From: Candidatus Latescibacterota bacterium
GTDB lineage: Bacteria; Latescibacterota; UBA2968; UBA8231
Length of the DNA stretch: 64,000 nt
Assembly: GCA_965221775.1 (NCBI GenBank)
Contig: CBDCSU010000006.1
Span: forward strand, 1,664,001-1,728,000
Reading direction: 5' to 3'
Position numbers and translations under genes: made by a program. Shown here one piece after another: positions 1 through 40,318 of this stretch. How positions within the stretch are numbered: position 1 is the first letter of the stretch; each line of letters begins with the position of its first letter. The notes under the pieces are model-generated. The model was not told where the DNA came from, searched no databases, and saw only the letters and a program-made list of their open reading frames with translations.

Positions 1-260
1 AGGGGTGGCGAGCCCCCTCGCTGCGCTCGGGTCTCTGGGCCTCTTGGATGTGTACAGTTGATGACCCCGGCCCGGCGTAATGCGCCGCTCAGGCGCGGCC
101 TGCGCGGCCTGCGCCGCCGGCACCGCCCGAGGGGTCCGATCCACCCACACTCTATCTGTACCGTGTGGCGCCGGGCACGGGACCTGAGCCGGGGTGAACC
201 CGGCGCCACGCGATCCGGTGAAGCGCTGGCCCGATGGTCAGCGGCCGCAGGAGTGACAGC

Positions 261-1136
261 ATGCAGATCGTACTGAACTCGAAGTTCTTCGCGGACCTGC
301 CGGTCGCCGAGCTGGGCGCCAGGGCGCTGGAGCTGGGGTACGACGGGATCGACGTCTGCGTCCGACCGGGGCATCCGGTTCACCCTGGCAACGCGAGGGC
401 CGAGCTTCCGGGGGCGGTGGATTTGTGGCGCCGGCAGGGGCTCTCGTGCCCGCTGGCGACGGCGCCGACGGACTTCGTGGATCCCGCCGCACCTGGCGCC
501 GAAGGGCTGTACGCCGCCTGCGCCGAGGCGGGGGTCCCGCGGCTGAAGATCGGGTTCTGGCGGTTCGCGCCGGGCGCCGACTACTGGCAGGCCGTCGATG
601 CGGCGCGGAGAGATCTGGAGGGCTTCGCCGGGCTCAGCGAAAAGCACGGGGTCCAGACCTGCTACCAGGCGCACAGCGGCGCCTGCCTCGGCTCGAACTG
701 CGCCGGGCTGATGCACCTGATCCGCGGCTTCGACCCGCGCCTCGTGGGGGCCTATCCGGATCTCGGGCACCAGGCCCTCGACGGCGAGGACTGGGAGATG
801 GGACTGGCCATGGTGCGCGACCACCTCTCCGTGGTGGGCGTCAAGGACGCCATGTACCGCCGCGAGCCGGAGAGGACGCCGCCCTGGAACCCCTGCTTCG
901 TCAAGGTGGGGGACGGCTGCGTCGACTGGGGCCGCTGTCTCGGCATCCTGCGCGGCTTCGGCTTCGAGGGGCCGCTGACCGTGCACACCGAGTACAGCTT
1001 CGACGAGGCGATCATCCGCCAGGTGGGCTACGCCGAGAGCGCACCGCCCAACCTGGAGGAATGGGCCCGGGCCGACGCGGCCTGGCTGCGGCGGGCGCTG
1101 GCGGCGCTTCCGCCGGACAGCAGCGGCAGTCGGTAG
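261..1136 (+). CDS. Sugar phosphate isomerase/epimerase (xylose isomerase-like TIM barrel)
   Basis: GYDGID near the N-terminus, YPDLGH, VGVKD and VGDGCVDW...GFEGPLTVHTE motifs; AGGAG upstream of ATG 261. Confidence 0.85.
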   Translation: MQIVLNSKFFADLPVAELGARALELGYDGIDVCVRPGHPVHPGNARAELPGAVDLWRRQGLSCPLATAPTDFVDPAAPGAEGLYAACAEAGVPRLKIGFWRFAPGADYWQAVDAARRDLEGFAGLSEKHGVQTCYQAHSGACLGSNCAGLMHLIRGFDPRLVGAYPDLGHQALDGEDWEMGLAMVRDHLSVVGVKDAMYRREPERTPPWNPCFVKVGDGCVDWGRCLGILRGFGFEGPLTVHTEYSFDEAIIRQVGYAESAPPNLEEWARADAAWLRRALAALPPDSSGSR

Positions 1137-1204
1137 TCCCGGCCGGCGCGCCGGTGGCTCCGCCGCGTCCTGCACCCGCCCTCACCTCCCGGGGTGCGGA
1201 CCGC

Positions 1205-1918
1205 TCAAGCCTCTTCCCTGTAGTCCTTGATATCCTGCCAAGTCAGGCCGGGTCGGGAGAAGATCGCGTGGTAGCGGGCCTCTCGCTCCTGGATCTCCAG
1301 GCCCTTCTCCAGCACCATCGCGGGGTCGTCCCCCGCCGGGATCTTGACGACGCCGTCGCGGTCGGCGGCGACGATCTCCCCGGGGAAGATCAGCAGCTCG
1401 TTGACCGTGATCGGGTGATTGTGGCGCACCAGGCTCAGCACGCCGTGACCGGGGGATGTCCCCGTTCCCCAGACCGGCAGTCCCACCCGCTCGATCCCCG
1501 CCAGGTCCCGTATCGATCCGTCGACGATGATGCCGGACACGCCCAGGTGCTTGTGGGTGGCGGCCATGCCGTCTCCGAGGGTGGCGCCGCGTCCGGCGCG
1601 GGTGTCGACGTCCTTCATGATGCTCACCATCGGGGCCGGCGACTCGTCGAGGAAGTCGTAGTACTCGTACCAGTCCAGGGCCGGCATGTCGGGGTCGTGG
1701 GTGGTCAGCTCGCAGGTGGCGGCGTAGCCGACGGCCATGCCGAGCCCGGGCAGCATGCACTGCATCCCGGGGCCCATGTAGTTGAAGGGCATGCCGCCCT
1801 GCCCCTCGAGCTCGCGCCCGCCCTGGCTGGCGCCGCGGGCCTCGATGACGGCGTTGAAGATGGTGGCGGTGTCGAGCTTCCTGAGACCTTCGAAGACCTC
1901 CGGCGATACCGGGTTCAT
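1205..1918 (-). CDS. RraA family / HMG aldolase-like protein
   Basis: C-terminal part of ORF 1205..3367: LDTATIFNA, VGYAAT, GDGMA, DGSIRD, IFPGEIVAADRDGVV. Confidence 0.88.
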   Translation of the reverse strand: MNPVSPEVFEGLRKLDTATIFNAVIEARGASQGGRELEGQGGMPFNYMGPGMQCMLPGLGMAVGYAATCELTTHDPDMPALDWYEYYDFLDESPAPMVSIMKDVDTRAGRGATLGDGMAATHKHLGVSGIIVDGSIRDLAGIERVGLPVWGTGTSPGHGVLSLVRHNHPITVNELLIFPGEIVAADRDGVVKIPAGDDPAMVLEKGLEIQEREARYHAIFSRPGLTWQDIKDYREEA

Positions 1919-29911: not shown

Positions 29912-30493
29912 TCAGGACTCTGCGGCGCCGTCGACCTCGAAGCCGCGGAGGGCGGCGCCGCAGGGATGCCCGTGCAGGGCCGGGGCCATGTGCACCTTGC
30001 GCAGGTAGTCGAGCGTCCCCGACAGCTCCTCGAAGCGGTCGGCCATGCCGCGGAAGAGCCGGGCCTGGCGGGCGCCCGCCAGCTGCAGGTGCTCGCCCAC
30101 GAGGCGGTAGCTCTCGCCCCCTTCCTTCAGGTAGTAGGAGAGGTGTCCGCCGGCCTCGACGTGGGGACGGAAGACGCCGGACAGGAAGAGGGCGTAGTCG
30201 CCGCAGTGGCGCCGCAGGTCGACCTCCCGGTCGAAGGACCAGGCCCGGTCCGAACCCCACTCCTCCATCAGCTCCAGCAGCAGGTCGGTGAGGGTGTGCA
30301 GCGGCCGTCCGCGGCTGTCGCGGACCCGGTACAGCTGGTCGGTGCGGGAAAAGCGGGCGAGCAGGTCGGTGACGTAGTCGGCCAGCTCCCCCGCGCCGAG
30401 TCCGAGGCTGGCGAAGCAGGGGCGCACCATGGCCCCGAAGAACCGGCGCAGCGCCGGCGGCGGGGGACGGGATGTGGATGCGCGGGAAACCAT
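29912..30493 (-). CDS. Conserved hypothetical helical protein
   Basis: ADYVTDLLARF...RRHCGDYALFLSGVF...YYLKEGGESY pattern; perfect TATAAT upstream. Confidence 0.7.
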   Translation of the reverse strand: MVSRASTSRPPPPALRRFFGAMVRPCFASLGLGAGELADYVTDLLARFSRTDQLYRVRDSRGRPLHTLTDLLLELMEEWGSDRAWSFDREVDLRRHCGDYALFLSGVFRPHVEAGGHLSYYLKEGGESYRLVGEHLQLAGARQARLFRGMADRFEELSGTLDYLRKVHMAPALHGHPCGAALRGFEVDGAAES

Positions 30494-30507
30494 GGCGGCC
30501 GCCGCAG

Positions 30508-30559
30508 ATTATAGGCCCTCGGATTGCGGTTGACACTGTCGAAGTGGAGAGGATACCCT
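30508..30559. promoter_or_regulatory. Overlapping divergent sigma70-type promoters
   Basis: Minus strand TATAAT at 30513-30508; plus strand TTGACA (30530-35)-N18-TACCCT (30554-59). Confidence 0.55.
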
Positions 30560-30567
30560 CACAGACC

Positions 30568-32664
30568 ATGGTCCGCTGGCCGCGACATCTGACCAACTCC
30601 CTCGACGACGCCTCCCGCCGGGAGGTGGCGCGCCTGGTGCAGGCCGAACGCGGCGCGAAGCCCGCTCTCGAGCGCGCCGGCGCCGTGCTGGAGTTCCGCC
30701 GCGGGGGCCAGCTTCAGTGCGGGTATCTCGCCCGGGATCCGCAGAACCGCAGGGGCTACGACGTCGTCGGCGTCGACGGCCGGCGGCTCCACCTCCGCCG
30801 CGACAAGGTGGTGGACGTATCCCCCGAGTACGTGTCGATGCACACGCCCGAGACGGCGCTGTCCGACCTCCGCCGCATCGACCGGAGGCGCGAGGAGGCC
30901 CGCGGCGCCGTCGACCTCACCGCCCTCTGGCAGGTCGCTCTCGAAGCGGGCCCGGAGGGCGGCGAGTGGCGCCTCGACGATCTGGTCGAGCTCCACGACC
31001 CCCGCGATCCGACCGCCAGCCGCCGGGCCGGCTTGCTCCGGGCCCTGTGGCGCGGCCACCGGTTCGAGCGCCACGGCGCCCGCTGGCGCCCCCGCCCCCC
31101 GGCGGCGGTGGAGAGGATCGAGGCGTCCTCCGCCCGCGAGGAGGTGGAGGAGGGCCGCCAGGCCGAGCTGGCCTCGTGGGTCCGAAGGGTCGCCGACGGG
31201 CATCCAGCCAACCCCCGTCCCGCCGGGGCGGACTCGGCGGTGAACCTGCTCGAGGCCACCGCCCTGGGCGAGGCGAGCGCGGAGGCCGCCCGTCTCATGA
31301 AGGCCGCCCACCTGCACGGGAGCGCCGCCGCCTTCGACGTCCTCGTCCGTCTGGGTCACTGGTCCGCCGACGAGAACCTGGAGCTGCACCGCCTCGGCCT
31401 TCCCGTGGACTTCTCCGAGGCGGCGGTGAAGGCGGCGCACGGCCTCGATCCCTCGCCCGTCCTCGCGGGGTGGGCAGGCCGCCGCCGCTGGGGCGCCGGC
31501 CTCTGCGTCACCCGTTGCGGCCAGCGGGCCTACCGTCTCCGCCGGAGCCTGCTCGGCCACACCGTCGTCGACATCCACGTGGCCGTGCCGGCCCTGTGGG
31601 TGGAGGACGGCGGCGCCATCGATCAGGAAGCCGCCGCCCGGGGCCTCAGCGTGCGCCTGCTGGAGCGGGAGATCCCGATGCTGCCGCCGGAGCTGACCGA
31701 CGCCTGCCGGCTGACGGCGGACGAGGCCCGACCCGTCCTGATCCTGAGCGTGCGCCTGGACCGCGAGCTGGCGCCGCGGAAGGTGCGGCTGTCCCTGGGC
31801 CGCGCCCGGCCCCGTGCGGCCCTCGCGGCCGGGGAAGGCAGCGCCCCGGTGCGCCGCCTGGCGGCGCTGGCCGAGGGGCGGCGGCAGAGACGGCGGCGAG
31901 CGGGGGCTTGGCAGCAACTGCATCCCGCCCACCGGATCGCGGTCCTCCAGGGGCGGGCGGCGCCGGCGGCGGAGGGGGTGGAGGACCGCATCGACTCGGA
32001 GCTGCGCCTGCTGGCGGCCGAAGCGATCGCCCGCCTCTGCCGCGACGCGGCGCCCGCGATCCACGCGGCGCGCGAGGCCCCGCCCGCCGAGTCCGGGATC
32101 CCCGGCGCCGCCGACTCCACGTCGGCCGAGGTCCTCCGCACCCATCTGCTCGAGGGCGGTGCCCCCCGCGAGAGGTTCGGGACGCCGCCGGCCCCCCACG
32201 CGGGTCTCGGACTGCCGGGCTGCGCCCCGGGCGCCAGCCCCCTGTCGAGCTACGTCGACCTGGCCATGCAGCGGCAGTTGCTGTGGATCGCGGGCCGGCG
32301 CTCCGACCCCCTCACGGCGGAGGACCTCGAGCGCATCCTGCTGGAGACGCGCGAGGCCCGGGAGGCGGCGGAGCGCGTGCGCCGCGGCAGCCGCCGCTAC
32401 TGGACGCTCAAGTGGCTCGAGGGCTTCGGGGACGAGGCGCGGCTGGAGTGCGTGGTCGCCGAACCGCGCGGCCCCGGGCACCTGGTACTGCTGCCCGAGG
32501 GTCCGGTGGCGTGCCATGTCCCGGCCCCCCGGGGGCAGCGGCTGCAGGCGGCGCCGGGCCAGCGCCTGCGGGTGCGGGTGGAGCAGGCCTCCGCCCGGCG
32601 CGACCTGTTGCGGCTGGCCGACCCCGAGCCCGCCCGGAGAGCGGACCCGCTCCCACCGGCCTGA
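30568..32664 (+). CDS. RNB-domain (RNase II-like) protein, predicted catalytically inactive
   Basis: HVAVP...IDQEAAARGLSV.L.EREIPMLP, PHAGLGL...SPLSSYVDLAMQRQL, C-terminal S1-like region; acidic catalytic motif missing. Confidence 0.8.
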   Translation: MVRWPRHLTNSLDDASRREVARLVQAERGAKPALERAGAVLEFRRGGQLQCGYLARDPQNRRGYDVVGVDGRRLHLRRDKVVDVSPEYVSMHTPETALSDLRRIDRRREEARGAVDLTALWQVALEAGPEGGEWRLDDLVELHDPRDPTASRRAGLLRALWRGHRFERHGARWRPRPPAAVERIEASSAREEVEEGRQAELASWVRRVADGHPANPRPAGADSAVNLLEATALGEASAEAARLMKAAHLHGSAAAFDVLVRLGHWSADENLELHRLGLPVDFSEAAVKAAHGLDPSPVLAGWAGRRRWGAGLCVTRCGQRAYRLRRSLLGHTVVDIHVAVPALWVEDGGAIDQEAAARGLSVRLLEREIPMLPPELTDACRLTADEARPVLILSVRLDRELAPRKVRLSLGRARPRAALAAGEGSAPVRRLAALAEGRRQRRRRAGAWQQLHPAHRIAVLQGRAAPAAEGVEDRIDSELRLLAAEAIARLCRDAAPAIHAAREAPPAESGIPGAADSTSAEVLRTHLLEGGAPRERFGTPPAPHAGLGLPGCAPGASPLSSYVDLAMQRQLLWIAGRRSDPLTAEDLERILLETREAREAAERVRRGSRRYWTLKWLEGFGDEARLECVVAEPRGPGHLVLLPEGPVACHVPAPRGQRLQAAPGQRLRVRVEQASARRDLLRLADPEPARRADPLPPA

Positions 32665-32666
32665 GA

Positions 32667-34019
32667 ATGGTCCGAGCGGGCCTGTGCGCGGCCCTCGCGG
32701 GGGCCTGCTGGCTGCTGGCCGGGGCCGCCGCCGCGGGTGAGCCGGAGACCGAGGCAAGCCGATTCTGGCCCGCCTGGCGCGGCCCCCTGGGCACCGGCGC
32801 CTCTCCCCACGCTGAGCCCCCGCTCCAGTGGAGCCAGACCCGCAACCTGCGCTGGAAGGCGTCCCTGCCCGGCGGCGGCCACTCTACGCCGGTGGTCTGG
32901 GGCGACCGGGTCTTCATCACCGCCGCAGTCCCGTACGGCGAGCCCCTGCCGCCGACGTACAGCGGGCTGCCGGGCGGCCACGACGAACGGCCGGTCACCC
33001 ATCGCCACCGGTTCGTCGTCCTTGCCCTGAGCCGCACCACGGGGCGGGTCCTCTGGCAGCGGGTCGTGCGCCACGACCTGCCCCGCGCCGGGGGCCACTA
33101 CACCGCCAGCCTGGCCTCCGCCTCGGCGGTGACCGACGGCGAGCACCTGGTCGCCTCCTTCGGCTCCCACGGGATCTACGGCCTCGACCTCGAGGGGGAG
33201 CTGCTGTGGGAGTTGGACCTCGGCCCCATGGAGCCGCTTCACGGCCACGGCGAAGGCAGCTCGCCGGCGCTCGCCGGCGGGACGCTGATCGTCAACTGGG
33301 ACCACGAGGGCGAGTCCTTCCTCGCCGCCTTCGACAAGAGGACGGGCGGCCTGCGCTGGAAGGCTCCGCGCGAGCCGGCCTCGTCCTGGACCACCCCCAT
33401 CGTGACCGACGCCGGCGGCCGCATCCAGGTCGTGGTCAGCGGCTCCGGGGGAGTGCGCGGCTACGACCTGGCCGACGGCCGCAGGATCTGGGAGTGCCCC
33501 GGCCTCTCGGTGGAGAACGTGGTCTCCACGCCGGTGGCCGGCTTCGGCCTCGTCTTCGCGGGCAGCAGCTACGACCGGCAGGCGGTGCTGGCGATTCCGC
33601 TGCAAGCCGCCGCGGACGAGACCGGCGGGCCCCGCCGGGCCGCCTGGAGCCGCACCCGGGGGGCGCCGTACGTCCCCTCCTTCCTGCTCTACGGGGACGC
33701 CCTCTACTTTGTCCGCCACTTCCAGAACATCCTCACCCGCGTCGACGCCCGAACGGGGCGGGACCGGCCGGGGCCGATGCGCCTGAAGGGCCTCGACCGG
33801 GTCTTCGCCTCTCCCGTCGCCGCTGCCGGCCGCGTGTACGTCACCAGCCGCAACGGCGTCACCGTGGTGGTCAGCCACGCCGATTCGCCCGCCCTCCTGG
33901 CCGTCAACCATCTCGACGACAGCTTCAGCGCCTCGGCGGCACTGGCCGGCGGCGAGCTCTACCTGCGAGGACGACACCACCTCTACTGCATCGCGGAGCA
34001 TCCGCCCCCGGCCCGGTGA
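32667..34019 (+). CDS. Secreted PQQ-like beta-propeller protein (BamB-like repeats)
   Basis: Signal peptide, WPAWRGP, GHSTPVVWGDRVF, SWTTP, FSASAALAGGELYLRG. Confidence 0.88.
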   Translation: MVRAGLCAALAGACWLLAGAAAAGEPETEASRFWPAWRGPLGTGASPHAEPPLQWSQTRNLRWKASLPGGGHSTPVVWGDRVFITAAVPYGEPLPPTYSGLPGGHDERPVTHRHRFVVLALSRTTGRVLWQRVVRHDLPRAGGHYTASLASASAVTDGEHLVASFGSHGIYGLDLEGELLWELDLGPMEPLHGHGEGSSPALAGGTLIVNWDHEGESFLAAFDKRTGGLRWKAPREPASSWTTPIVTDAGGRIQVVVSGSGGVRGYDLADGRRIWECPGLSVENVVSTPVAGFGLVFAGSSYDRQAVLAIPLQAAADETGGPRRAAWSRTRGAPYVPSFLLYGDALYFVRHFQNILTRVDARTGRDRPGPMRLKGLDRVFASPVAAAGRVYVTSRNGVTVVVSHADSPALLAVNHLDDSFSASAALAGGELYLRGRHHLYCIAEHPPPAR

Positions 34020-34044
34020 ACCCGGCAGGCGCCGGCGGTGTCAA
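34017..34044 (+). promoter_or_regulatory. Putative ECF-type (autoregulatory) promoter
   Basis: TGAACC-N16-TGTCAA, ending 15 nt before the sigma ATG; GGAGG at 34051-55. Confidence 0.55.
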
Positions 34045-34059
34045 CCGGGTGGAGGCCGG

Positions 34060-34665
34060 ATGGGGAAGAGCGACGAGGAGCTGGTCCGCGGGGTGATCGA
34101 GGGGCGGCAGGAAGACTTCGCCGAGCTCTTCGAGCGCTACCGCGCCGATGTGCAGCGGCACCTGCGGCGGATCCATCGCCATGACGAGGACGCCGCCGAC
34201 GTCGGGCAGGAGGTGTTCCTGCGCCTGTGGCACCGCGCCGGACAGTGGAAGGGCGACGGCCCCCTGCTCGCCTGGCTGCTGCGCATCGCCACCAACCTCG
34301 CCCTCAACCACATCCGCTCGGTCCGGCGCCGCCGCGAGCAGCCGCTGCAGCCGCCCCCCGCCATGGACGGAGAGGAGGAGGACGACACCCGGGTTCCGGA
34401 GTGGATGATCGACGCCTCCACCCTTCCGCCCGACGAGGTCCTGGCCGTGGCCGAGCGCCGGCGGCTGCTGCGCGGCCTGGTGACGCGTCTGCCCGAGGAC
34501 GGGCGCAGGGTCATCCGGCTGATCTACGACGGCCACCTGAACACGCGCCAGGCCGCTACCGAGCTGGGCATACCCGAGGGCACGGTGAAGTCCCGGATCC
34601 ACCACGCCCGCAAACAGATCGCTCGATCCTGGCGCGACCTGGGGATCGACTGGGAGGAGGACTAG
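34060..34665 (+). CDS. ECF (sigma-70 family group 4) RNA polymerase sigma factor
   Basis: FAELFERY, DAADVGQEVFLRLW, WLLRIATNLALNHIR (region 2); ELGIPEGTVKSRIHHAR (region 4.2). Confidence 0.95.
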   Translation: MGKSDEELVRGVIEGRQEDFAELFERYRADVQRHLRRIHRHDEDAADVGQEVFLRLWHRAGQWKGDGPLLAWLLRIATNLALNHIRSVRRRREQPLQPPPAMDGEEEDDTRVPEWMIDASTLPPDEVLAVAERRRLLRGLVTRLPEDGRRVIRLIYDGHLNTRQAATELGIPEGTVKSRIHHARKQIARSWRDLGIDWEED

Positions 34666-34667
34666 GC

Positions 34668-37600
34668 ATGGCGACCGCACCGTCCAACCCGTGGCACAAG
34701 GCGTCCTTCGACGAATTCCTGCACCGCCGCCTTCCCGAGTTGCTGGCCGCACGGCTGGGGGTGACCACCTGCCGCGCCGCAGGGGCCGGCGGTCACGCCT
34801 GCCGGATCGTCCTCGGCGGGCGTTCCGCCGAGGGGGACTTCGAGGTCGAGTACGACGGGCTGCCCGCACCGGACGAGGAGGGCGTCTTCCGGTTGCCGGG
34901 TTCCCCGGACCCGGACGGCGGGCCCCGCCTGCCGCCCCCGAGGACGTACCACGGGGGGGAGCGCGAGCCCTCGGGCGAAGTCGAGCTGGTCGTGCTGCCC
35001 GTGGCCGACCGGGACGACCTGGCCGAGGCCCGAATCGACTGTCTCGGCGACCGGCTCTCGACCTTCATCGAGTCCCGCCTCGGGGAGGTCCCCGGCCACA
35101 CCCCCCTCGACGGGTCCCTCCTGCGGACCCTGGCGCCTCTGAAGGACTGGTTCCACTCCTTCCTGGCCTCCTGCGGCGAGCGGCTCGACGACACCAACTG
35201 GCTGTCCCGGTCCGCGCACCTGCGCCGGATCCTGGTCCCGGACCGCCAGGAGGTATTCACCCCCGGCCACTTCGGCCGCACCTGCCCCTTCGAGACCCCG
35301 GAGGGACCGAACATCGGCCGCGTCCTGACGATCTCCCGGGGCGCGGAGATCCGCGGCCGCCGGCTGGTGATCGTCGACGCGAAGCCCGCGGAGGGACTGG
35401 GCATGTCCAGCGCATGCATCCCCTTCCTCGAGCACGACGACGGCAACCGCGTGCTCATGGGCGCCAACATGATGCGCCAGTGGCTGGCGCCCGCCGAGAG
35501 AGAGCCGGCCTTCGTGCGGACCGGCCTCGAGCCGCGGGCGCCGGACTTCTGGTGCGGCCGGAACCTGCTCACGGCTCTGCTCTCGTGGGACGGGGACGCC
35601 TTCGAGGACGCCGTGCTGCTCAGCCGGTCCGGCGCCCGCAAGCTCGCCTGCCCGGAGCCCCTCGAGCCCGGCGACAAGCTCAGCAACCGCCACGGGATCA
35701 AGGGCGTCGTGTCCCGGGTGGCGCCCGACGAGGAGATGCCGCGGCTGCCCGACGGCACCCCCGTGGAGCTGGTCTTCAGCTTCTCCGGCATTCCGTCCCG
35801 CTGGGTCATGGGGCTGGTCCGGGAGGCCGCCCTCGGACACGCGGCTCACCTGCGGGGGGAGCCCGCCGTCGTGCCCCCCTTCAAGGCGCCTTCCGACGAG
35901 CAGTTGCGGAACCTGCTTCAGGGCAGCGGCCTGCGCGCCGACGGCATGACCACGCTGACCCTCGACGGCACTCCCCTGCGGCGGCCGGCCACGGCCGGAT
36001 CGGTCTACTGGGGCTGCACCGTGCATCGCGCTCGCCCGAAACTGAGGGCCGCCGTCCACCCCGACGACCGGGGCCAGCGCCTGGGGGAGATGGAGGTGCG
36101 GGCCCTGGCCGAGGCCGGGGCGCCCGCGGTGATCCGGGAGCTGACCAACACCTGCTCCAGCCAACGCGGCGACGCCGGTTCCCTGGCCGAGAGGGCCGCC
36201 GCCGGACCGGTCGAGCCGGCGAGCACCCCCTCTCCCGCCTTCTCGGCCCTGGCGGCGGGTCTGGCGCAGGCCGGAATCCGCGCCGAGGCCGGCCCCCGGG
36301 GGGTCGCCTTCCGGTTGGAACCACCCCGGGGGCCGACGCTGTCCCTGGCCGCCGGCGTGCCCCACCCCTGGTTGCCGGGGAAGACCCTGTCCGAGGTCTG
36401 CGCAGCCGAGGGGGCCGCCGGATATCCCGAGGTCCTCGCCGCCAACGGCAGGCTCGCCCGCCTGCCGAAGGACGGGGCTCCCGAGCCCCTGGCAGCCGCG
36501 GCTCTCGACGATCTGGCCGCCGCTGTCTCGGACCTGTACGACGGACTGGCCGCCGCGCCGCGGCTGGGGCGGGATGGGAATGTCCTCTTCAGCGGCCGTG
36601 CGGTGATCGTCCCCGGGGGCGATCTGCCGGCCGACCGGCTCGGCCTCCCGGCGGAGATGGCCTGGAGCCTCTTCGGGCCGCTGGTGGCCCGCGCGCTGGG
36701 GGATCCCGAAGCGGTGGGGCAGCGCTCCACCGAGGCCGAGGCCGCCCTCGCCGCCGCCATGGAGGCCCACTGGGTCATCCTCGGCCACGCTCCATCGGTC
36801 AGTCCCACGGCGATGCTGGCCTTCCGGCCCCTGCCGATCCCGGGCCACGCCATCCGTCTCTGCCCCCTGGCCTGCGGCCTGTTGGACGCCGATTTCGACG
36901 GCGACCAGGCGGCCGTCTTCCTGCCTCTCACGGAGGCGGCTCAGCGCGAGACCCGCGAGCGGCTGTCCATCGCCGGCCACCTGGCCCGTGACCCCGGCCT
37001 CGTGGAGGACCTCTTCCCGCGCATGGACGCCCTCTTCGGGCTGGCCTGCCTCAGCCGCTCGGCAGCGGGCCGGAAGGCGATTACGCAAGCCGCCGGCCGG
37101 GAGCCGAACCTCGAGGGCGGCCTCCTCACCCGCGAGGCGGCGGCGATGCTGCTGCGGGGTGTCCTGACCGACGAGGGGGAGCAGGCGGCCCTGGGCGTGG
37201 CCGCGGAACTGATGCGGTTGGGGTTCGAGACGGCCCGCGCGGAGGGAGGCTCCGTGGGGCCCTTCATCGGCAGCACCCTCGAACTGCCCGTCCCCCCGGG
37301 GGAGGACGACGCGCCGCAGTGGCAGGCCTGCACGGAGGAAGCCCGGGCGATCGTCGCCGGCTTCCGCGACTACGACGACCACGACCTGGGGGCCGCCGCC
37401 CTGCTGTGCCACAGCGGCGCCCGGGCCACGGTCCATCAGCTCACCACCCTGGTGGGGCCGGGCGGACTCGTTCGCGACGTCGAGGGCCGGGTCCTCGGAG
37501 TCGCCCGCTCCTGGCGGGAGGGACTGACCGCGCGGGAGGTGCTGGCCCGGGTCGTCGGCGCCCGCCGCGGCCTGTTCCGCGTCCTGACGGAGTTCGGATC

Positions 37601-37769
37601 CCTCGGCCGGGAGCGGTCCGGGTCCGGGCCGGAGGGGTTCGGCGTCCTGGCCCGGGCCCGCCGGGTCGAGCGCCCGGGCCTCGTCTTCGCGAGGGCTGCC
37701 CTCAGGGGCGAGGTCGATCCCCTGGAAGACGAGCAATCGCGGCTGCTGGTCGGACTGTCCAGGCCGTGA
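34668..37769 (+). CDS. Miniaturised single-chain RpoB-RpoC (beta-beta') RNA-polymerase-like protein, 1033 aa
   Basis: Collinear beta motifs (GRTCPFETPEGPNIG, IPFLEHDDGNRVLMGANM, FED, GDKLSNRHGIKG, PSR, GQRLGEMEV) followed by beta' motifs (FSGRAVI, GLPAEMA, ADFDGDQ, SGAR, REGL, GARRGL). Confidence 0.92.
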   Translation: MATAPSNPWHKASFDEFLHRRLPELLAARLGVTTCRAAGAGGHACRIVLGGRSAEGDFEVEYDGLPAPDEEGVFRLPGSPDPDGGPRLPPPRTYHGGEREPSGEVELVVLPVADRDDLAEARIDCLGDRLSTFIESRLGEVPGHTPLDGSLLRTLAPLKDWFHSFLASCGERLDDTNWLSRSAHLRRILVPDRQEVFTPGHFGRTCPFETPEGPNIGRVLTISRGAEIRGRRLVIVDAKPAEGLGMSSACIPFLEHDDGNRVLMGANMMRQWLAPAEREPAFVRTGLEPRAPDFWCGRNLLTALLSWDGDAFEDAVLLSRSGARKLACPEPLEPGDKLSNRHGIKGVVSRVAPDEEMPRLPDGTPVELVFSFSGIPSRWVMGLVREAALGHAAHLRGEPAVVPPFKAPSDEQLRNLLQGSGLRADGMTTLTLDGTPLRRPATAGSVYWGCTVHRARPKLRAAVHPDDRGQRLGEMEVRALAEAGAPAVIRELTNTCSSQRGDAGSLAERAAAGPVEPASTPSPAFSALAAGLAQAGIRAEAGPRGVAFRLEPPRGPTLSLAAGVPHPWLPGKTLSEVCAAEGAAGYPEVLAANGRLARLPKDGAPEPLAAAALDDLAAAVSDLYDGLAAAPRLGRDGNVLFSGRAVIVPGGDLPADRLGLPAEMAWSLFGPLVARALGDPEAVGQRSTEAEAALAAAMEAHWVILGHAPSVSPTAMLAFRPLPIPGHAIRLCPLACGLLDADFDGDQAAVFLPLTEAAQRETRERLSIAGHLARDPGLVEDLFPRMDALFGLACLSRSAAGRKAITQAAGREPNLEGGLLTREAAAMLLRGVLTDEGEQAALGVAAELMRLGFETARAEGGSVGPFIGSTLELPVPPGEDDAPQWQACTEEARAIVAGFRDYDDHDLGAAALLCHSGARATVHQLTTLVGPGGLVRDVEGRVLGVARSWREGLTAREVLARVVGARRGLFRVLTEFGSLGRERSGSGPEGFGVLARARRVERPGLVFARAALRGEVDPLEDEQSRLLVGLSRP

Positions 37770-37854
37770 CGGCCAGGCCGTGCGGCCTCACCCGCCGACC
37801 GCCTGGGCGTGCCCGCGGGAGTGGTGTCGAGTGTCGGCCCGGCGGCCGGCAGCG

Positions 37855-38784
37855 CTAGCCGTCCGGCCCGCGCAACTCGATGGCGTCCAGCAGTTGCTGA
37901 GGGTTGGCCAGGTCCACGGGCAGGAGCACGTCCGTCTTGCCGTCGGCCAGACCGCGCAACGTCTTGAGATAGCGCTCCGCCAGCTGCAGGTGCACCGACT
38001 GGGCGCCGCCGGCGACGCTGATCGAGGCGGCGATCTTCTCGATCGACTCGGCCGTCGCATGGGCGATGGCCCGGACCTCCTCGGCCTGACCCTGGGCCTC
38101 GTTGATGGTGCGCTGCATCTCGCCCTCCGAGCGGTTGATCAGCTCCAGGCGCCGGCCCTCCGAGGTGTTGATGCGGCTCTGCTTGTCGCCCTCGGACTGG
38201 GCCACGACGGCGCGGCGGTCGCGCTCGGCGGTGACCTGCTTCTCCATGGCGTCCTTCACCGTCGGCGGCGGCGACAGGTTCTTGATCTCGTAGCGGTGGA
38301 CGCGGATCCCCCAGGTCTCCCCCGACCTCTCCAGCACCTCCACCACTTTGGCCGAGATCAGGTCGCGCTCCTCGAAGGTCCGGTCGAGCTCGAGGGTGCC
38401 GATGACCGAACGGGTCGTGGTCTGCGCCAGTTGCATGGCGGCGAAGGAGTAGTTGGTCACCCCGTAACTGGCCTTCACCGGATCGGTGACCGAGATGTAG
38501 AGGACGCCGTCCACCTCGACCTGGACCTCGTCCCGGGTGAAGCACTCCTGGGGCGGCACGTCGACGGTCTCCTCCTTGAGATCGCGGATGAAGGCCACCT
38601 TCTCGATGAAGGGCACGAGGGCGTGGAAACCGGGGTTCAGAGTTCTGGAGTACTTGCCGAGCCGCTCGACGACGTACGCCGACTGGGTCGGCACCAGCCG
38701 GATCGAGCGCAGGAACTTGACGATCAGGACCAGGAACAGGACGGCCCAGACGATGAGGTTGAAGATCTCGAAGACGGTCGACAT
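37855..38784 (-). CDS. SPFH/stomatin (paraslipin-like) protein
   Basis: VVERLGKY, VEVDGVLY, AQTTTRSVIG, WGIRVHRYEI, MEKQVTAER. Confidence 0.93.
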   Translation of the reverse strand: MSTVFEIFNLIVWAVLFLVLIVKFLRSIRLVPTQSAYVVERLGKYSRTLNPGFHALVPFIEKVAFIRDLKEETVDVPPQECFTRDEVQVEVDGVLYISVTDPVKASYGVTNYSFAAMQLAQTTTRSVIGTLELDRTFEERDLISAKVVEVLERSGETWGIRVHRYEIKNLSPPPTVKDAMEKQVTAERDRRAVVAQSEGDKQSRINTSEGRRLELINRSEGEMQRTINEAQGQAEEVRAIAHATAESIEKIAASISVAGGAQSVHLQLAERYLKTLRGLADGKTDVLLPVDLANPQQLLDAIELRGPDG

Positions 38785-38785
38785 G

Positions 38786-39718
38786 TCAGGCCTCCTTCTT
38801 CTGGTTCGGCACGCCGGCGGCGACCTCGCCCAGCCCCTCGAAGAAGCCCTTGATCCGGGCCAGCTCCAGGGGCACGACGGAGACGCTGGACTTGGCGGCG
38901 ATCTCCCGGATCGTCTCGATGTACTCCTCCACCAGCTGCATCTTCAGCGCCGCCGGTCCGCCTTCCTTCTGCACCGCGGCGGCGATCCGCTCGGTGCCCT
39001 CGGCGGTGGCCTCGGCGATGATGGAGATCGCCTCGGCCTGTCCCCTGGCGACGTTGATCCGGCGTTGCTTCTCGCCCTCGGAGATGTTGATCTCCTCCTG
39101 GCGCTCGCCCTCGGAGAGGTTGATGGTGCTCTCCTTCTCCGCCGCGGCGCGGGTGATCTCGGCGCGCTTCTCGCGCTCCGCCTCCATCTGCTTCTCGAGG
39201 GTGTTCACCACGTTCGCCGAGGGCGTGATGTTGCGCAGCTCGTAGCGCAGCACCTTGATCCCCCAGGGATTCGAGGCCTTGTCGATCTCCTGGACGATCG
39301 TCTCGTTCAGGGACTCGCGCTCGTAGAACGACTGGCCCAGGGTCAGCTTGCCGATCTCGGCCCGCATCGTCGTCTGCGCCAGGTTGATGCTGGCGCGGCG
39401 GTAGTCCTCGATGCCGTAGCTGGCGCGCTCGGGATCGAGGACCTGCAGGTAGACCAGGCCGTCCACCTCGACCTGGATGTTGTCGCGCGTGATGCAGGCC
39501 TGGCTGGGGACGTCGATCACCTGCTCGCGCGTCTCGTGGCGATAGGCGATGCGGTCGAAAAAGGGGATGAGGAAGTGGAACCCCGGCTGCAGGACCGCCC
39601 GGAACTTGCCCAGCCGCTCGACGATGACCGCCGCGCGCATGGGCACGACGACAAATGTCTTGAGCACCAGGAACAGGGCGATCAGCACGAGGATCGTGAA
39701 GTACGTCAGAAGGGGCAT
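38786..39718 (-). CDS. SPFH/stomatin (paraslipin-like) protein
   Basis: IVERLGKF, ITRDNIQVEVDG, AQTTMRAEIG, WGIKVLRYE. Confidence 0.93.
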   Translation of the reverse strand: MPLLTYFTILVLIALFLVLKTFVVVPMRAAVIVERLGKFRAVLQPGFHFLIPFFDRIAYRHETREQVIDVPSQACITRDNIQVEVDGLVYLQVLDPERASYGIEDYRRASINLAQTTMRAEIGKLTLGQSFYERESLNETIVQEIDKASNPWGIKVLRYELRNITPSANVVNTLEKQMEAEREKRAEITRAAAEKESTINLSEGERQEEINISEGEKQRRINVARGQAEAISIIAEATAEGTERIAAAVQKEGGPAALKMQLVEEYIETIREIAAKSSVSVVPLELARIKGFFEGLGEVAAGVPNQKKEA

Positions 39719-39721
39719 CGC

Positions 39722-40186
39722 TCAATTCTCCTGTAAGGGACCGCCGCCGTCGGGCCCGGCGGCCTCGACGACCCACACGAGGTTCTCGCGATAGGCGAGG
39801 ATCGCCTTCTCTCCCGCCTCGATGGTGCCGTCGTAGCAGATCGCCTGCCAGGTGGCGTCCCGGTAGTGGATCCGCCCCGCCTGGTCCGGCGCGATCCTCT
39901 CCACCACGTCCACGACCGTGCCGTAGGCGTCCTCCTCCTCGTCGGTGGACTGTCGCTCGGACCCGCCTCCGACGAAGCGCAGGAAGAGGCCGCGCAGGCT
40001 CAGCAGCAGGACGAGGGAGAGGATGAACCAGGTGGTGAGGGCCGGGATCAGGCCGTCGATCCAGCCCAGCCAGATGAGGGCGGCCACGATCAGGGCGCTC
40101 GACCCGAGAAAGCCGAGCACCATTCCGGGCAGGAACAACTCCAGCAGGATCATGACGGCGCCGGCGACGATCCAGGCTGTGAGCAT
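39722..40186 (-). CDS. NfeD family membrane protein
   Basis: WIVAGAVMILLELFLPG transmembrane region plus C-terminal OB-like GRIHYRDATWQA; adjacent to SPFH genes. Confidence 0.88.
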   Translation of the reverse strand: MLTAWIVAGAVMILLELFLPGMVLGFLGSSALIVAALIWLGWIDGLIPALTTWFILSLVLLLSLRGLFLRFVGGGSERQSTDEEEDAYGTVVDVVERIAPDQAGRIHYRDATWQAICYDGTIEAGEKAILAYRENLVWVVEAAGPDGGGPLQEN

Positions 40187-40318
40187 AGGGCCTCCGGGGA
40201 TTGGCAGGCGGAGACGGCGTCGGGGAAGGATAGGGCGGATGAGAGGGGGGAGCGAGATTGCGGGGAAGGCCGGGCGCCCGGAGCGCACCGGGGCGGCCTC
40301 CCCCGGCGGTGCAAGGGA

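Follow-up and report, generated by a model that had tools for sequence, protein, structure and literature searches.

YonO, encoded by the Bacillus prophage SPbeta, is a proven processive, single-chain DNA-dependent RNA polymerase from which most canonical domains are absent, and in the excerpted account of it homology to the cellular enzymes extends to only a few residues, with homology to the trigger loop undetectable and no linked sigma factor described (PMC5467207). Related designs are found in Orf6 of the yeast killer plasmid pGKL2, an Rpb2::Rpb1 fusion of 982 amino acids (aa) and eukaryotic descent, and in C. glutamicum NCgl1702, a distant beta::beta' fusion of 2169 aa with ~40 conserved residues, neither of which is described with a sigma factor in the part of the source drawn on here (PMC2919709). 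The DNA considered in this work, a window of 64,000 nucleotides from a Candidatus Latescibacterota bacterium (GCA_965221775.1, contig CBDCSU010000006.1, positions 1,664,001 to 1,728,000), encodes a single-chain polymerase, here called the mini polymerase, whose ATG lies 3 nt downstream of the stop codon of a gene for an extracytoplasmic function (ECF) sigma factor. It is a sigma-linked variant, apparently undescribed in the literature, of a known kind of enzyme. The literature searched yielded no description of a sigma-linked mini polymerase family, though the ECF neighbourhood supplements could list the sigma group (PMC7826278), and RpoB, RpoC and 'polymerase subunit' are unmentioned in the main texts of the ECF reclassification paper and the non-canonical ECF review. 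On balance, the evidence favours a two-gene module in which the clamp-helix hairpin of the polymerase has been kept as a dock for region 2 of the co-encoded sigma.

The single open reading frame of the mini polymerase contains the Pfam domains Rpb2_3, Rpb2_6 and Rpb1_2, and it scores well below the cut-offs of the NCBIfam models for rpoB (TIGR02013, 163.5 bits against 801.15) and rpoC (TIGR02386, 100.4 bits against 963.5). A family profile built from an alignment of 66 full-length members was compared by hhalign with host and E. coli beta and beta', giving probabilities of 99.9-100; the similarity to the bacterial subunits runs in long blocks that are 30-50% identical, and the best matches in the PDB are bacterial beta (E 4e-41). 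AlphaFold2 prediction on the same 66-member alignment reached a mean predicted local distance difference test (pLDDT) of 92.0 and a predicted template modelling score (pTM) of 0.89. In this model, residues 1..519 superpose on 22..1137 of bacterial beta 8i23_C (VIA) with Z 30.3 and a root-mean-square deviation (rmsd) of 2.5 over 491 residues. Superposition on the E. coli enzyme, suggested as a check by a first-pass annotation made from the DNA letters, places residues 22..513 of a separate model of the beta'-like half (aa 521-1033) on 16..1358 of E. coli beta' 7xya_D (VIA), with Z 28.9 and rmsd 8.6 over 475 residues. The host genome also carries a separate, full rpoC on another contig (1771.9 bits), with rpoB adjoining, so the mini polymerase is a second, accessory polymerase-like gene.

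Compared with the bacterial core enzyme of E. coli or the host (RpoB, RpoC), the mini polymerase retains both barrels together with the fork region and the C-terminal end on the beta side, and the clamp helices, the DFDGD loop and the first part of the bridge helix on the beta' side, and the folds superpose at Z ~29-30; it is one chain of 1033 aa where E. coli has 1342 + 1407, and, judged by length, it is without the lobes, the flap, the zinc region and room for a trigger loop, with a shortened piece behind the hairpin. These comparisons indicate a 115-kDa single chain derived from strongly trimmed and fused bacterial beta and beta' subunits. YonO is likewise a single chain of ~100 kDa with both barrels, but the mini polymerase has long beta/beta' blocks, a distinction drawn from YonO's published description. 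With Orf6 and, more distantly, NCgl1702 it shares a design in which the second-largest subunit is fused before the largest and about half of the coding sequence is deleted, a likeness taken from the excerpted description only (PMC2919709). Full-size fusions (NCBIfam PRK09603 and PRK14844, ~2840-2890 positions) have the same order of halves and are matched at 145-155 bits, but they join complete subunits end to end (cut-offs 4632 and 5372 bits), and the mini polymerase is ~1/3 of their length. The family represents a recent, clearly bacterial reduction of beta/beta' to ~1/3 length and a third route to a single-chain two-barrel enzyme beside YonO and Orf6, and it alone among the three has a dedicated sigma.

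Full-size bacterial polymerases have two main holds on sigma, one at the flap tip and one at the clamp helices; the mini polymerase has lost the first and kept the second. The kept element was recognized in the first-pass annotation by an alignment made by eye, in which a 41-residue segment (36423-36545, aa 586-626) was matched without gaps to the beta' clamp helices, and profile comparison, a scan with the segment alone and AlphaFold2 all agree with that assignment. The hhalign alignment to beta' (probability 99.9, E 5e-33 over its whole length) starts at query residue 583, equivalent to E. coli 266, and pairs 586-626 with 269-309 without a gap; the register is the same against host beta', and a second polymerase alignment of 33 sequences, taken from loci fetched in this analysis only, reproduces it against E. 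coli beta'. When the 41-mer was slid without gaps along the 1407 residues of E. coli beta', the best position was offset 269 (score 41, next best 16), where 14/41 residues are identical; shuffled 41-mers reached the real score in 2/2000 trials against E. coli beta' and in 0/2000 against host beta'. In the AlphaFold2 model the block (pLDDT 83-93) is a helix at 586-601, a four-residue turn (GAP 603-605) and a second helix at 606-627, and the separate model of aa 521-1033 (pLDDT 82.5) has a similar hairpin with a shorter first helix (586-597 and 606-627). The segment, which had been expected to model as a coiled coil, thus forms a helical hairpin in two predictions.

Across the 66 members the hairpin is a conserved block almost without insertions or deletions. 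In E. coli numbering, the buried positions are kept (V/L 272, L279, L282/283, L 291, L299, V303 and an aromatic residue or Leu at 306), as are P288 (P605, 62/66), N276 (N593, 49/66), R278 (R595, 46/66) and R281 (R598, 42/66). R275, E295 and A302 are named, in the sections of the source drawn on, as hairpin residues essential for binding sigma region 2.2, with residues 403, 406, 407 and 409 of sigma-70 as their partners (PMC8321222). In the family, the R275 position is Ala in 52/66 members (A592 in the window), the E295 position is Ala in 48/66 (A612), and the A302 position (A619) is Ala in 25/66 and Arg in 16/66, while R, E and A are all retained in host beta'. The further claim that most basic residues had been replaced holds for the window copy, which has 3 Lys or Arg residues in the 41-mer where E. 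coli has 9 and the host 10, but is only half true for the family (mean 5.3, range 3-8). Taken together, these alignments show that the scaffold of the hairpin and part of its sigma-facing surface are kept, with two key charged residues consistently neutralised.

One conceivable explanation is that the likeness of aa 586-626 is an inherited scaffold, that the hairpin binds no partner and that sigma and polymerase do not touch. The alanines at the R275 and E295 positions and the 3 basic residues, where full-size enzymes have 9-10, would suit such a relic, but exposed positions are conserved and indels almost absent over 66 members, and the family co-occurs strictly with the sigma, so this explanation is considered very improbable.

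The second sigma-binding element has been lost from the beta-like half. The pairing of query 290-324 with E. coli beta 790-824 and of 330-394 with 1058-1122 by hhalign identifies the FED motif with beta 812-814 and the GDK motif with 1063-1065, and only 20 residues separate the two, against 248 in E. coli and ~240 in host beta. The same spacing is found in the consensus of the 66 members (TFEDGIVxSxSAAxRLxxPxPLExGDKLSNRHG), and the earlier reading of this region, 20 codons in place of ~250 aa, is borne out with its coordinates exact. In the E. coli enzyme the absent stretch comprises the flap domain with its tip helix and a lineage-specific insertion. Further deletions relative to E. coli beta cover residues 1 to ~386 (~70-110 residues stand instead), 707-789 and 1123-1176, and the half ends at query 544, equivalent to the last residue of E. 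coli beta (1342). Judged by length, trimming appears to have removed the beta lobes and the whole flap. The barrel residues themselves are retained: the acidic pair E813/D814 as E313 (56/66 members) and D314 (62/66), and the lysines K1065/K1073 as K337 (61/66) and K345 (62/66), with G335 and D336 invariant and R341 present in 66/66. The single CxxC of the mini polymerase, CP[YFH]C near aa 183-207, also lies in this half and occurs in 20/34 family sequences.

A comparable loss is known from the polymerases of Hodgkinia endosymbionts, in which, according to the excerpted report, the flap-tip helix is lost and substitutions occur at R275, E295 and A302 (PMC8321222). The region-4 dock is lost in both cases, but in Hodgkinia it is the sole essential polymerase that has eroded in a reduced genome, whereas here an accessory enzyme beside intact RpoB/RpoC has lost the whole flap.

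In the beta'-like half, no sequence alignment reaches beta' residues before 266, and a zinc-type CxxC is absent from this half in all 34 family sequences checked (34/34), in keeping with the absence first reported for the window copy. The E. coli segment that follows the hairpin (312-335), running up to GRFRQNLLGKR, is interrupted by hhalign gaps of 14 and 8-11 residues; we take the piece absent here to be the rudder. The first part of the long helix 955-985 aligns to the start of the bridge-helix region, and only 48 residues follow it, which structurally match the far C-terminus of beta' and, by their number, would leave no room for a trigger loop. Trimming thus seems to have claimed the zinc region, the piece behind the hairpin and all that separates the bridge helix from the helices at the C-terminus, and to have spared both catalytic barrels and the clamp-helix hairpin. 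The aspartates of the DFDGD loop are conserved in nearly all members (D742 64/66, D744 64/66, D746 63/66), and this conservation of catalytic residues in the family argues for a working polymerase.

Two other active-site positions are more variable. The window protein has H707 (36786-36788) at the position of beta' R425 and D740 (36885-36887) at that of N458, which we take to be the positions that read the sugar of the incoming nucleotide. R425 (Rpb1 R446) is listed, in the section of the source used, among eight residues common to all two-barrel polymerases (PMC2919709). In the family the R425 position is R in 52/66 and H in 7/66; the pair is R/N in 33/66 and H/D in 6/66 members of the alignment, and R/N in 34, S/E in 15 and H/D in 3 of 61 locus-derived sequences. 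As the pair varies by clade while the aspartate triad is conserved throughout, substrate choice between ribonucleotides and deoxyribonucleotides (rNTP or dNTP) may differ between clades. Nine loci (L142-L150) in the phylum of the Poribacteria record carry a polymerase variant of 1089-1108 aa, with the sigma still linked; the family profile matches only its positions 1-767 of 1009, so the C-terminal third of this variant is probably diverged or replaced.

The partner sigma has the two regions expected of an ECF factor (Pfam Sigma70_r2 at 53.7 bits, Sigma70_r4_2 at 46.9 bits; NCBIfam TIGR02937 at 89.9 bits, above the cut-off of 42.9) and aligns end to end with E. coli sigma-E in hhalign (residues 2-193 to 4-187, probability 99.5, E 4e-23). 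Set against the lone sequence of E. coli sigma-70, the sigma family could not be usefully aligned (probability 1.4). Its region 4 is standard. In an alignment of 32 orthologues, D47, Q50 and E51 of region 2.2 are invariant, presumably the counterparts of sigma-70 D403, Q406 and E407, and P113 is invariant as well. The linker between regions 2 and 4 carries VPxWMID, a conserved motif specific to this family, with W115 in at least 90% of sequences. The linker of full-size ECF holoenzymes runs through the cleft and along the RNA exit path, a route that is heavily trimmed in the mini polymerase. Set beside the ECF holoenzymes of E. coli sigma-E and M. tuberculosis sigma-H (5zx3), the pair has the same two-domain sigma, clamp-helix dock and ECF promoter but differs in the missing flap tip, in Ala at R275/E295 and in a sigma linker with VPxWMID.

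The interface had initially been proposed to be reshaped and possibly orthogonal. Reshaping is found on the polymerase side, where the flap is lost and the hairpin surface altered, but not on the sigma side, where region 2.2 is canonical. With a canonical region 2.2, and with host beta' keeping R, E and A, nothing in the sequences argues that the sigma is barred from the host core, and orthogonality of the pair is a guess.

The two genes are strictly linked in the family. An orthologous sigma gene lies on the same strand and directly upstream of the polymerase gene at 34/34 loci, two of them with a split sigma frame; four of these loci come from a general scan of genome contigs, which with the family alignment was dominated by rpoB/rpoC (4 family members among the best 80 loci), and the other 30, counting that of the window itself, belong to the phylum of the window. 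At further loci in two other phyla the sigma is directly upstream in 32/33, and in the exception (L147) it is 2.95 kb upstream on the same strand. With three repeats discounted (L119 = L006, L124 = L005, L111 = L008), linkage holds at 64 distinct places. Orthologues of the sigma from relatives that are not close score 142-231 bits, and the sigma stop and polymerase start codons touch or overlap at many loci; a gap of ~0.2-0.7 kb separates the genes in some genomes (L128-L132, L137, L141, L146). Four genomes contain exactly one sigma match each at E <= 1e-30, and no full-length sigma match above 67 bits was found in five polymerase-less genomes of the window's family (87-96% complete). One of the five, from the window's genus, does contain a fragment (G167:C1:3859727-3859900) of 58 aa with 74% identity to sigma residues 23-80, and this looks like the scar of a lost module.

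Among five loci compared with 6-kb flanks, only the sigma and polymerase genes are common to all. These loci share no alpha- or omega-like gene next to the pair, nor is a cognate anti-sigma gene found beside the sigma, whose sole conserved neighbour there is the mini polymerase. ECF sigma genes usually have an anti-sigma gene directly downstream, and the mini polymerase could occupy this slot, its hairpin titrating the sigma from the host core whether or not the protein polymerises RNA. The lack of a third conserved gene, the presence of a canonical sigma-binding element in the gene behind the sigma and a coupled gene arrangement that would suit a stoichiometric binder all speak for such a sink, but a pure decoy has no need of the catalytic residues that the family keeps in both barrels, and a decoy of 1033 aa would be costly. 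As titration would require the same hairpin contact, it is better seen as an added role than as a competitor of the docking proposal, and as an account of its own it is quite improbable.

A motif of ECF type, TGAACY-N13-CGGTGTC, stands ahead of every inspected sigma gene, ~17-40 nt from the start codon and with invariant spacing. The strict form is found upstream of the sigma at 55/64 loci and a relaxed form at 58/64, against 3/64 control stretches, and several of the misses are artefacts of where homology started. The type of the motif (GAAC ... GTC) indicates that the sigma most likely drives its own operon. Searches for a wider regulon returned 8 motif matches in the window's own genome, against 9 for the reversed control, and 9 matches against 1 for the control in five other genomes, 5/9 being the operons' own sites, which alone were consistent; two near-identical extra sites occur in two genomes, of which the one opened (L154) is antisense inside a Lon protease gene, and two further sites are in G506. 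The lack of a convincing second site suggests a closed, self-activating loop.

In the canonical enzyme, the flap tip places sigma region 4 on the -35 element, and use of the -35 depends on the flap tip. A promoter with a -35 element at fixed spacing, next to a polymerase without a flap, therefore lends some credit to a different arrangement, in which the sigma is an ordinary self-activating ECF factor acting on the host core and the mini polymerase is cargo that works without sigma, like YonO so far as known, its hairpin serving the folding of the clamp core or some other factor. This arrangement also draws on a sigma that is canonical over its whole length, on a host beta' hairpin that is unaltered beside a host beta with a flap-sized region, and on the YonO report, the consulted part of which leaves open whether YonO needs any factor (PMC5467207). 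It leaves unexplained, however, why the hairpin surface residues N593, R595, R598, A592 and A612 stayed conserved when flap, zinc region and the piece behind the hairpin were all deleted, why stop and start codons touch or overlap, and why no sigma target is visible beyond its own operon.

Complex prediction also bears on this point. The sigma with aa 240-1033 of the mini polymerase, each supplied with its alignment, scored 0.56 (runs 0.59, 0.56 and 0.56), where the highest of three controls reached 0.01, with a pLDDT of the partner of at least 64 and at least 39% of contacts shared between runs; the result, rated as weak support for a contact, fits poorly with a sigma that serves the host core only. 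The mark used was reached by 58/80 solved complexes and 2/110 mismatched pairs, and scores <= 0.60 comprise only 7 of the 80 solved complexes plus both passing mismatches. Covariation between the two proteins, a check suggested in the first-pass annotation, was computed as mutual information with average-product correction on 61 sigma/polymerase pairs, reduced to 36 at 90% identity, and in this underpowered set the hairpin was not enriched (6 pairs in the top 200 against 9.1 expected); the best z between sigma region 2 and the hairpin was 3.67, against 4.70 elsewhere, with the key contacts invariant. Overall, a sigma devoted to the host core beside an independent polymerase is regarded as unlikely, if less so than the sink or the relic.

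The best reading of the hairpin is that it is the surviving canonical dock for sigma. The gene pair (34060-37769) would form a self-contained transcription module of an ECF sigma and a single-chain polymerase, in which the co-encoded sigma serves as initiation factor of the mini polymerase and also drives the conserved promoter before its own operon. Trimming would have spared the hairpin for its continuing role as the dock of region 2, and region 4, deprived of its hold on the flap tip, would be free or held in some other way. Architecture, homology, hairpin fold, residue changes, gene linkage and promoter motif are shown by the data, whereas we infer that the two proteins bind each other at the hairpin and that the mini polymerase, not the host core only, uses the sigma.

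Several observations weigh against this proposal. Ala at two of the three positions reported as essential to sigma binding in E. coli could mean weaker rather than re-tuned binding, and a canonical sigma could serve the host core instead or as well. The -35-like element at fixed spacing fits a promoter read by the host core, so that either it is read by the host core or region 4 is placed in a novel manner by the mini enzyme. No convincing second motif site was found in the six genomes searched. The window protein differs at two conserved positions, R425 to His and N458 to Asp. Finally, the complex prediction offers weak support, with no interface reported, and its pass may reflect likeness to solved holoenzymes.

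A broader proposal, put forward tentatively and with somewhat less than even confidence, is that the pair is a portable system of one 1033-aa chain and one ECF sigma, capable of promoter-specific initiation although flap, zinc region and trigger loop are gone and one canonical contact, that of region 2 with the clamp hairpin, survives. No smaller sigma-dependent relative of the cellular RNA polymerases would then exist, and the pair would spread as a unit between phyla of sponge-associated and other bacteria. The module may also be insulated from factors that act on host enzyme domains absent here. The mini polymerase offers a natural test of how much core a sigma needs and of whether a -35 element can be read without a flap. 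With a promoter motif of its own, the 3.7-kb cassette would also appeal to engineers as a compact transcription unit.

Table 1. Coordinates of the sigma/mini polymerase gene pair and its features in the window (contig positions are given where available).
Feature	Residues and E. coli equivalent	Position in window	Strand	Basis or remark
ECF-type promoter TGAACC-N13-CGGTGTC		34017..34042	+	17 nt before sigma start; contig 1698017-1698042
ECF sigma factor gene, regions 2 + 4	201 aa	34060..34665	+	Pfam, NCBIfam, hhalign
Sigma linker motif VPxWMID	sigma aa 109-117	34384-34410	+	32-sequence alignment
Mini RNA polymerase gene (beta::beta' single chain)	1033 aa plus stop	34668..37769	+	
Beta-like half	aa 1-544	34668..36299	+	hhalign block map, structural alignment
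FED motif	aa 312-314 = beta 812-814	35601..35609	+	translation, profile alignment
20-codon connector in place of beta flap		35610..35669	+	modelled as strand 316-319 and helix 320-325
GDK motif	aa 335-337 = beta 1063-1065	35670..35678	+	translation, profile alignment
Beta'-like half	aa 545-1033	36300..37766	+	hhalign, structural alignment
Clamp-helix hairpin	aa 586-627 = beta' 269-309	36423..36548	+	profile alignment, AlphaFold2
Short connector	aa 628-637	36549..36578	+	stands where beta' has ~22-25 more residues (312-335)
DFDGD catalytic aspartates	aa 742-746 = beta' 460-464	36891..36905	+	profile alignment
Long helix	aa 955-985; first part = beta' ~770-792	37530..37622	+	first part aligns to bridge-helix region start

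The mini polymerase family is large and unnamed in the databases, with 389 representatives at E <= 1e-30 in a 50%-identity protein library and with 'hypothetical protein' as the source name throughout those shown among the 120 best proteins listed. Its distribution is patchy: it occurs in 66/168 genomes of the window's phylum and in 4/9 other genomes of the genus, in 32/176 genomes of the phylum of the Poribacteria record, and in 3/301 sampled genomes of the phylum of the Caldilineaceae record. Neither the sigma nor the mini polymerase matched any PADLOC model of anti-phage defence (0 families), and among the PHROGs phage families only generic full-size RNA polymerase and sigma families were matched.

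DNA near-identical or related to 33800-37900 is present in sponge or marine metagenome runs of 7 studies, on which account the organism is apparently associated with sponges. A single sponge metatranscriptome run contains a 1070-nt contig over 33912-34987, of ~91% identity, that bridges the sigma/polymerase junction, along with a few short contigs further into the polymerase gene; these contigs come from a relative and carry no strand or start information, and with DNA carry-over possible they are not counted as proof of expression. The public labels of these genomes disagree: a record titled Candidatus Latescibacterota has the same place (L008/L111) as a genome assigned by kinship to the taxonomic family of the window's genome, and the closest named proteins are labelled Gemmatimonadaceae.

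Around the module (30472-34019 and 37855-40288) lie genes for an RNB-domain RNase II-like protein and for a PQQ/BamB-like beta-propeller protein, as well as two SPFH/Band 7 genes plus an NfeD gene on the opposite strand; in other genomes these neighbours are not conserved beside the module. Among the best 80 loci on viral contigs (IMG/VR), no family member was recognised, the matches being partial and at most 21-50% identical. On many of these contigs (L160-L239) there are compact genes for beta-like and beta'-like proteins, matching aa 185-980 with 21-26% identity; in L205, the one opened, the two genes are separate and 902 and 1000 aa long, and the group may be a phage lineage with a deeply branching multisubunit polymerase outside the mini polymerase family.

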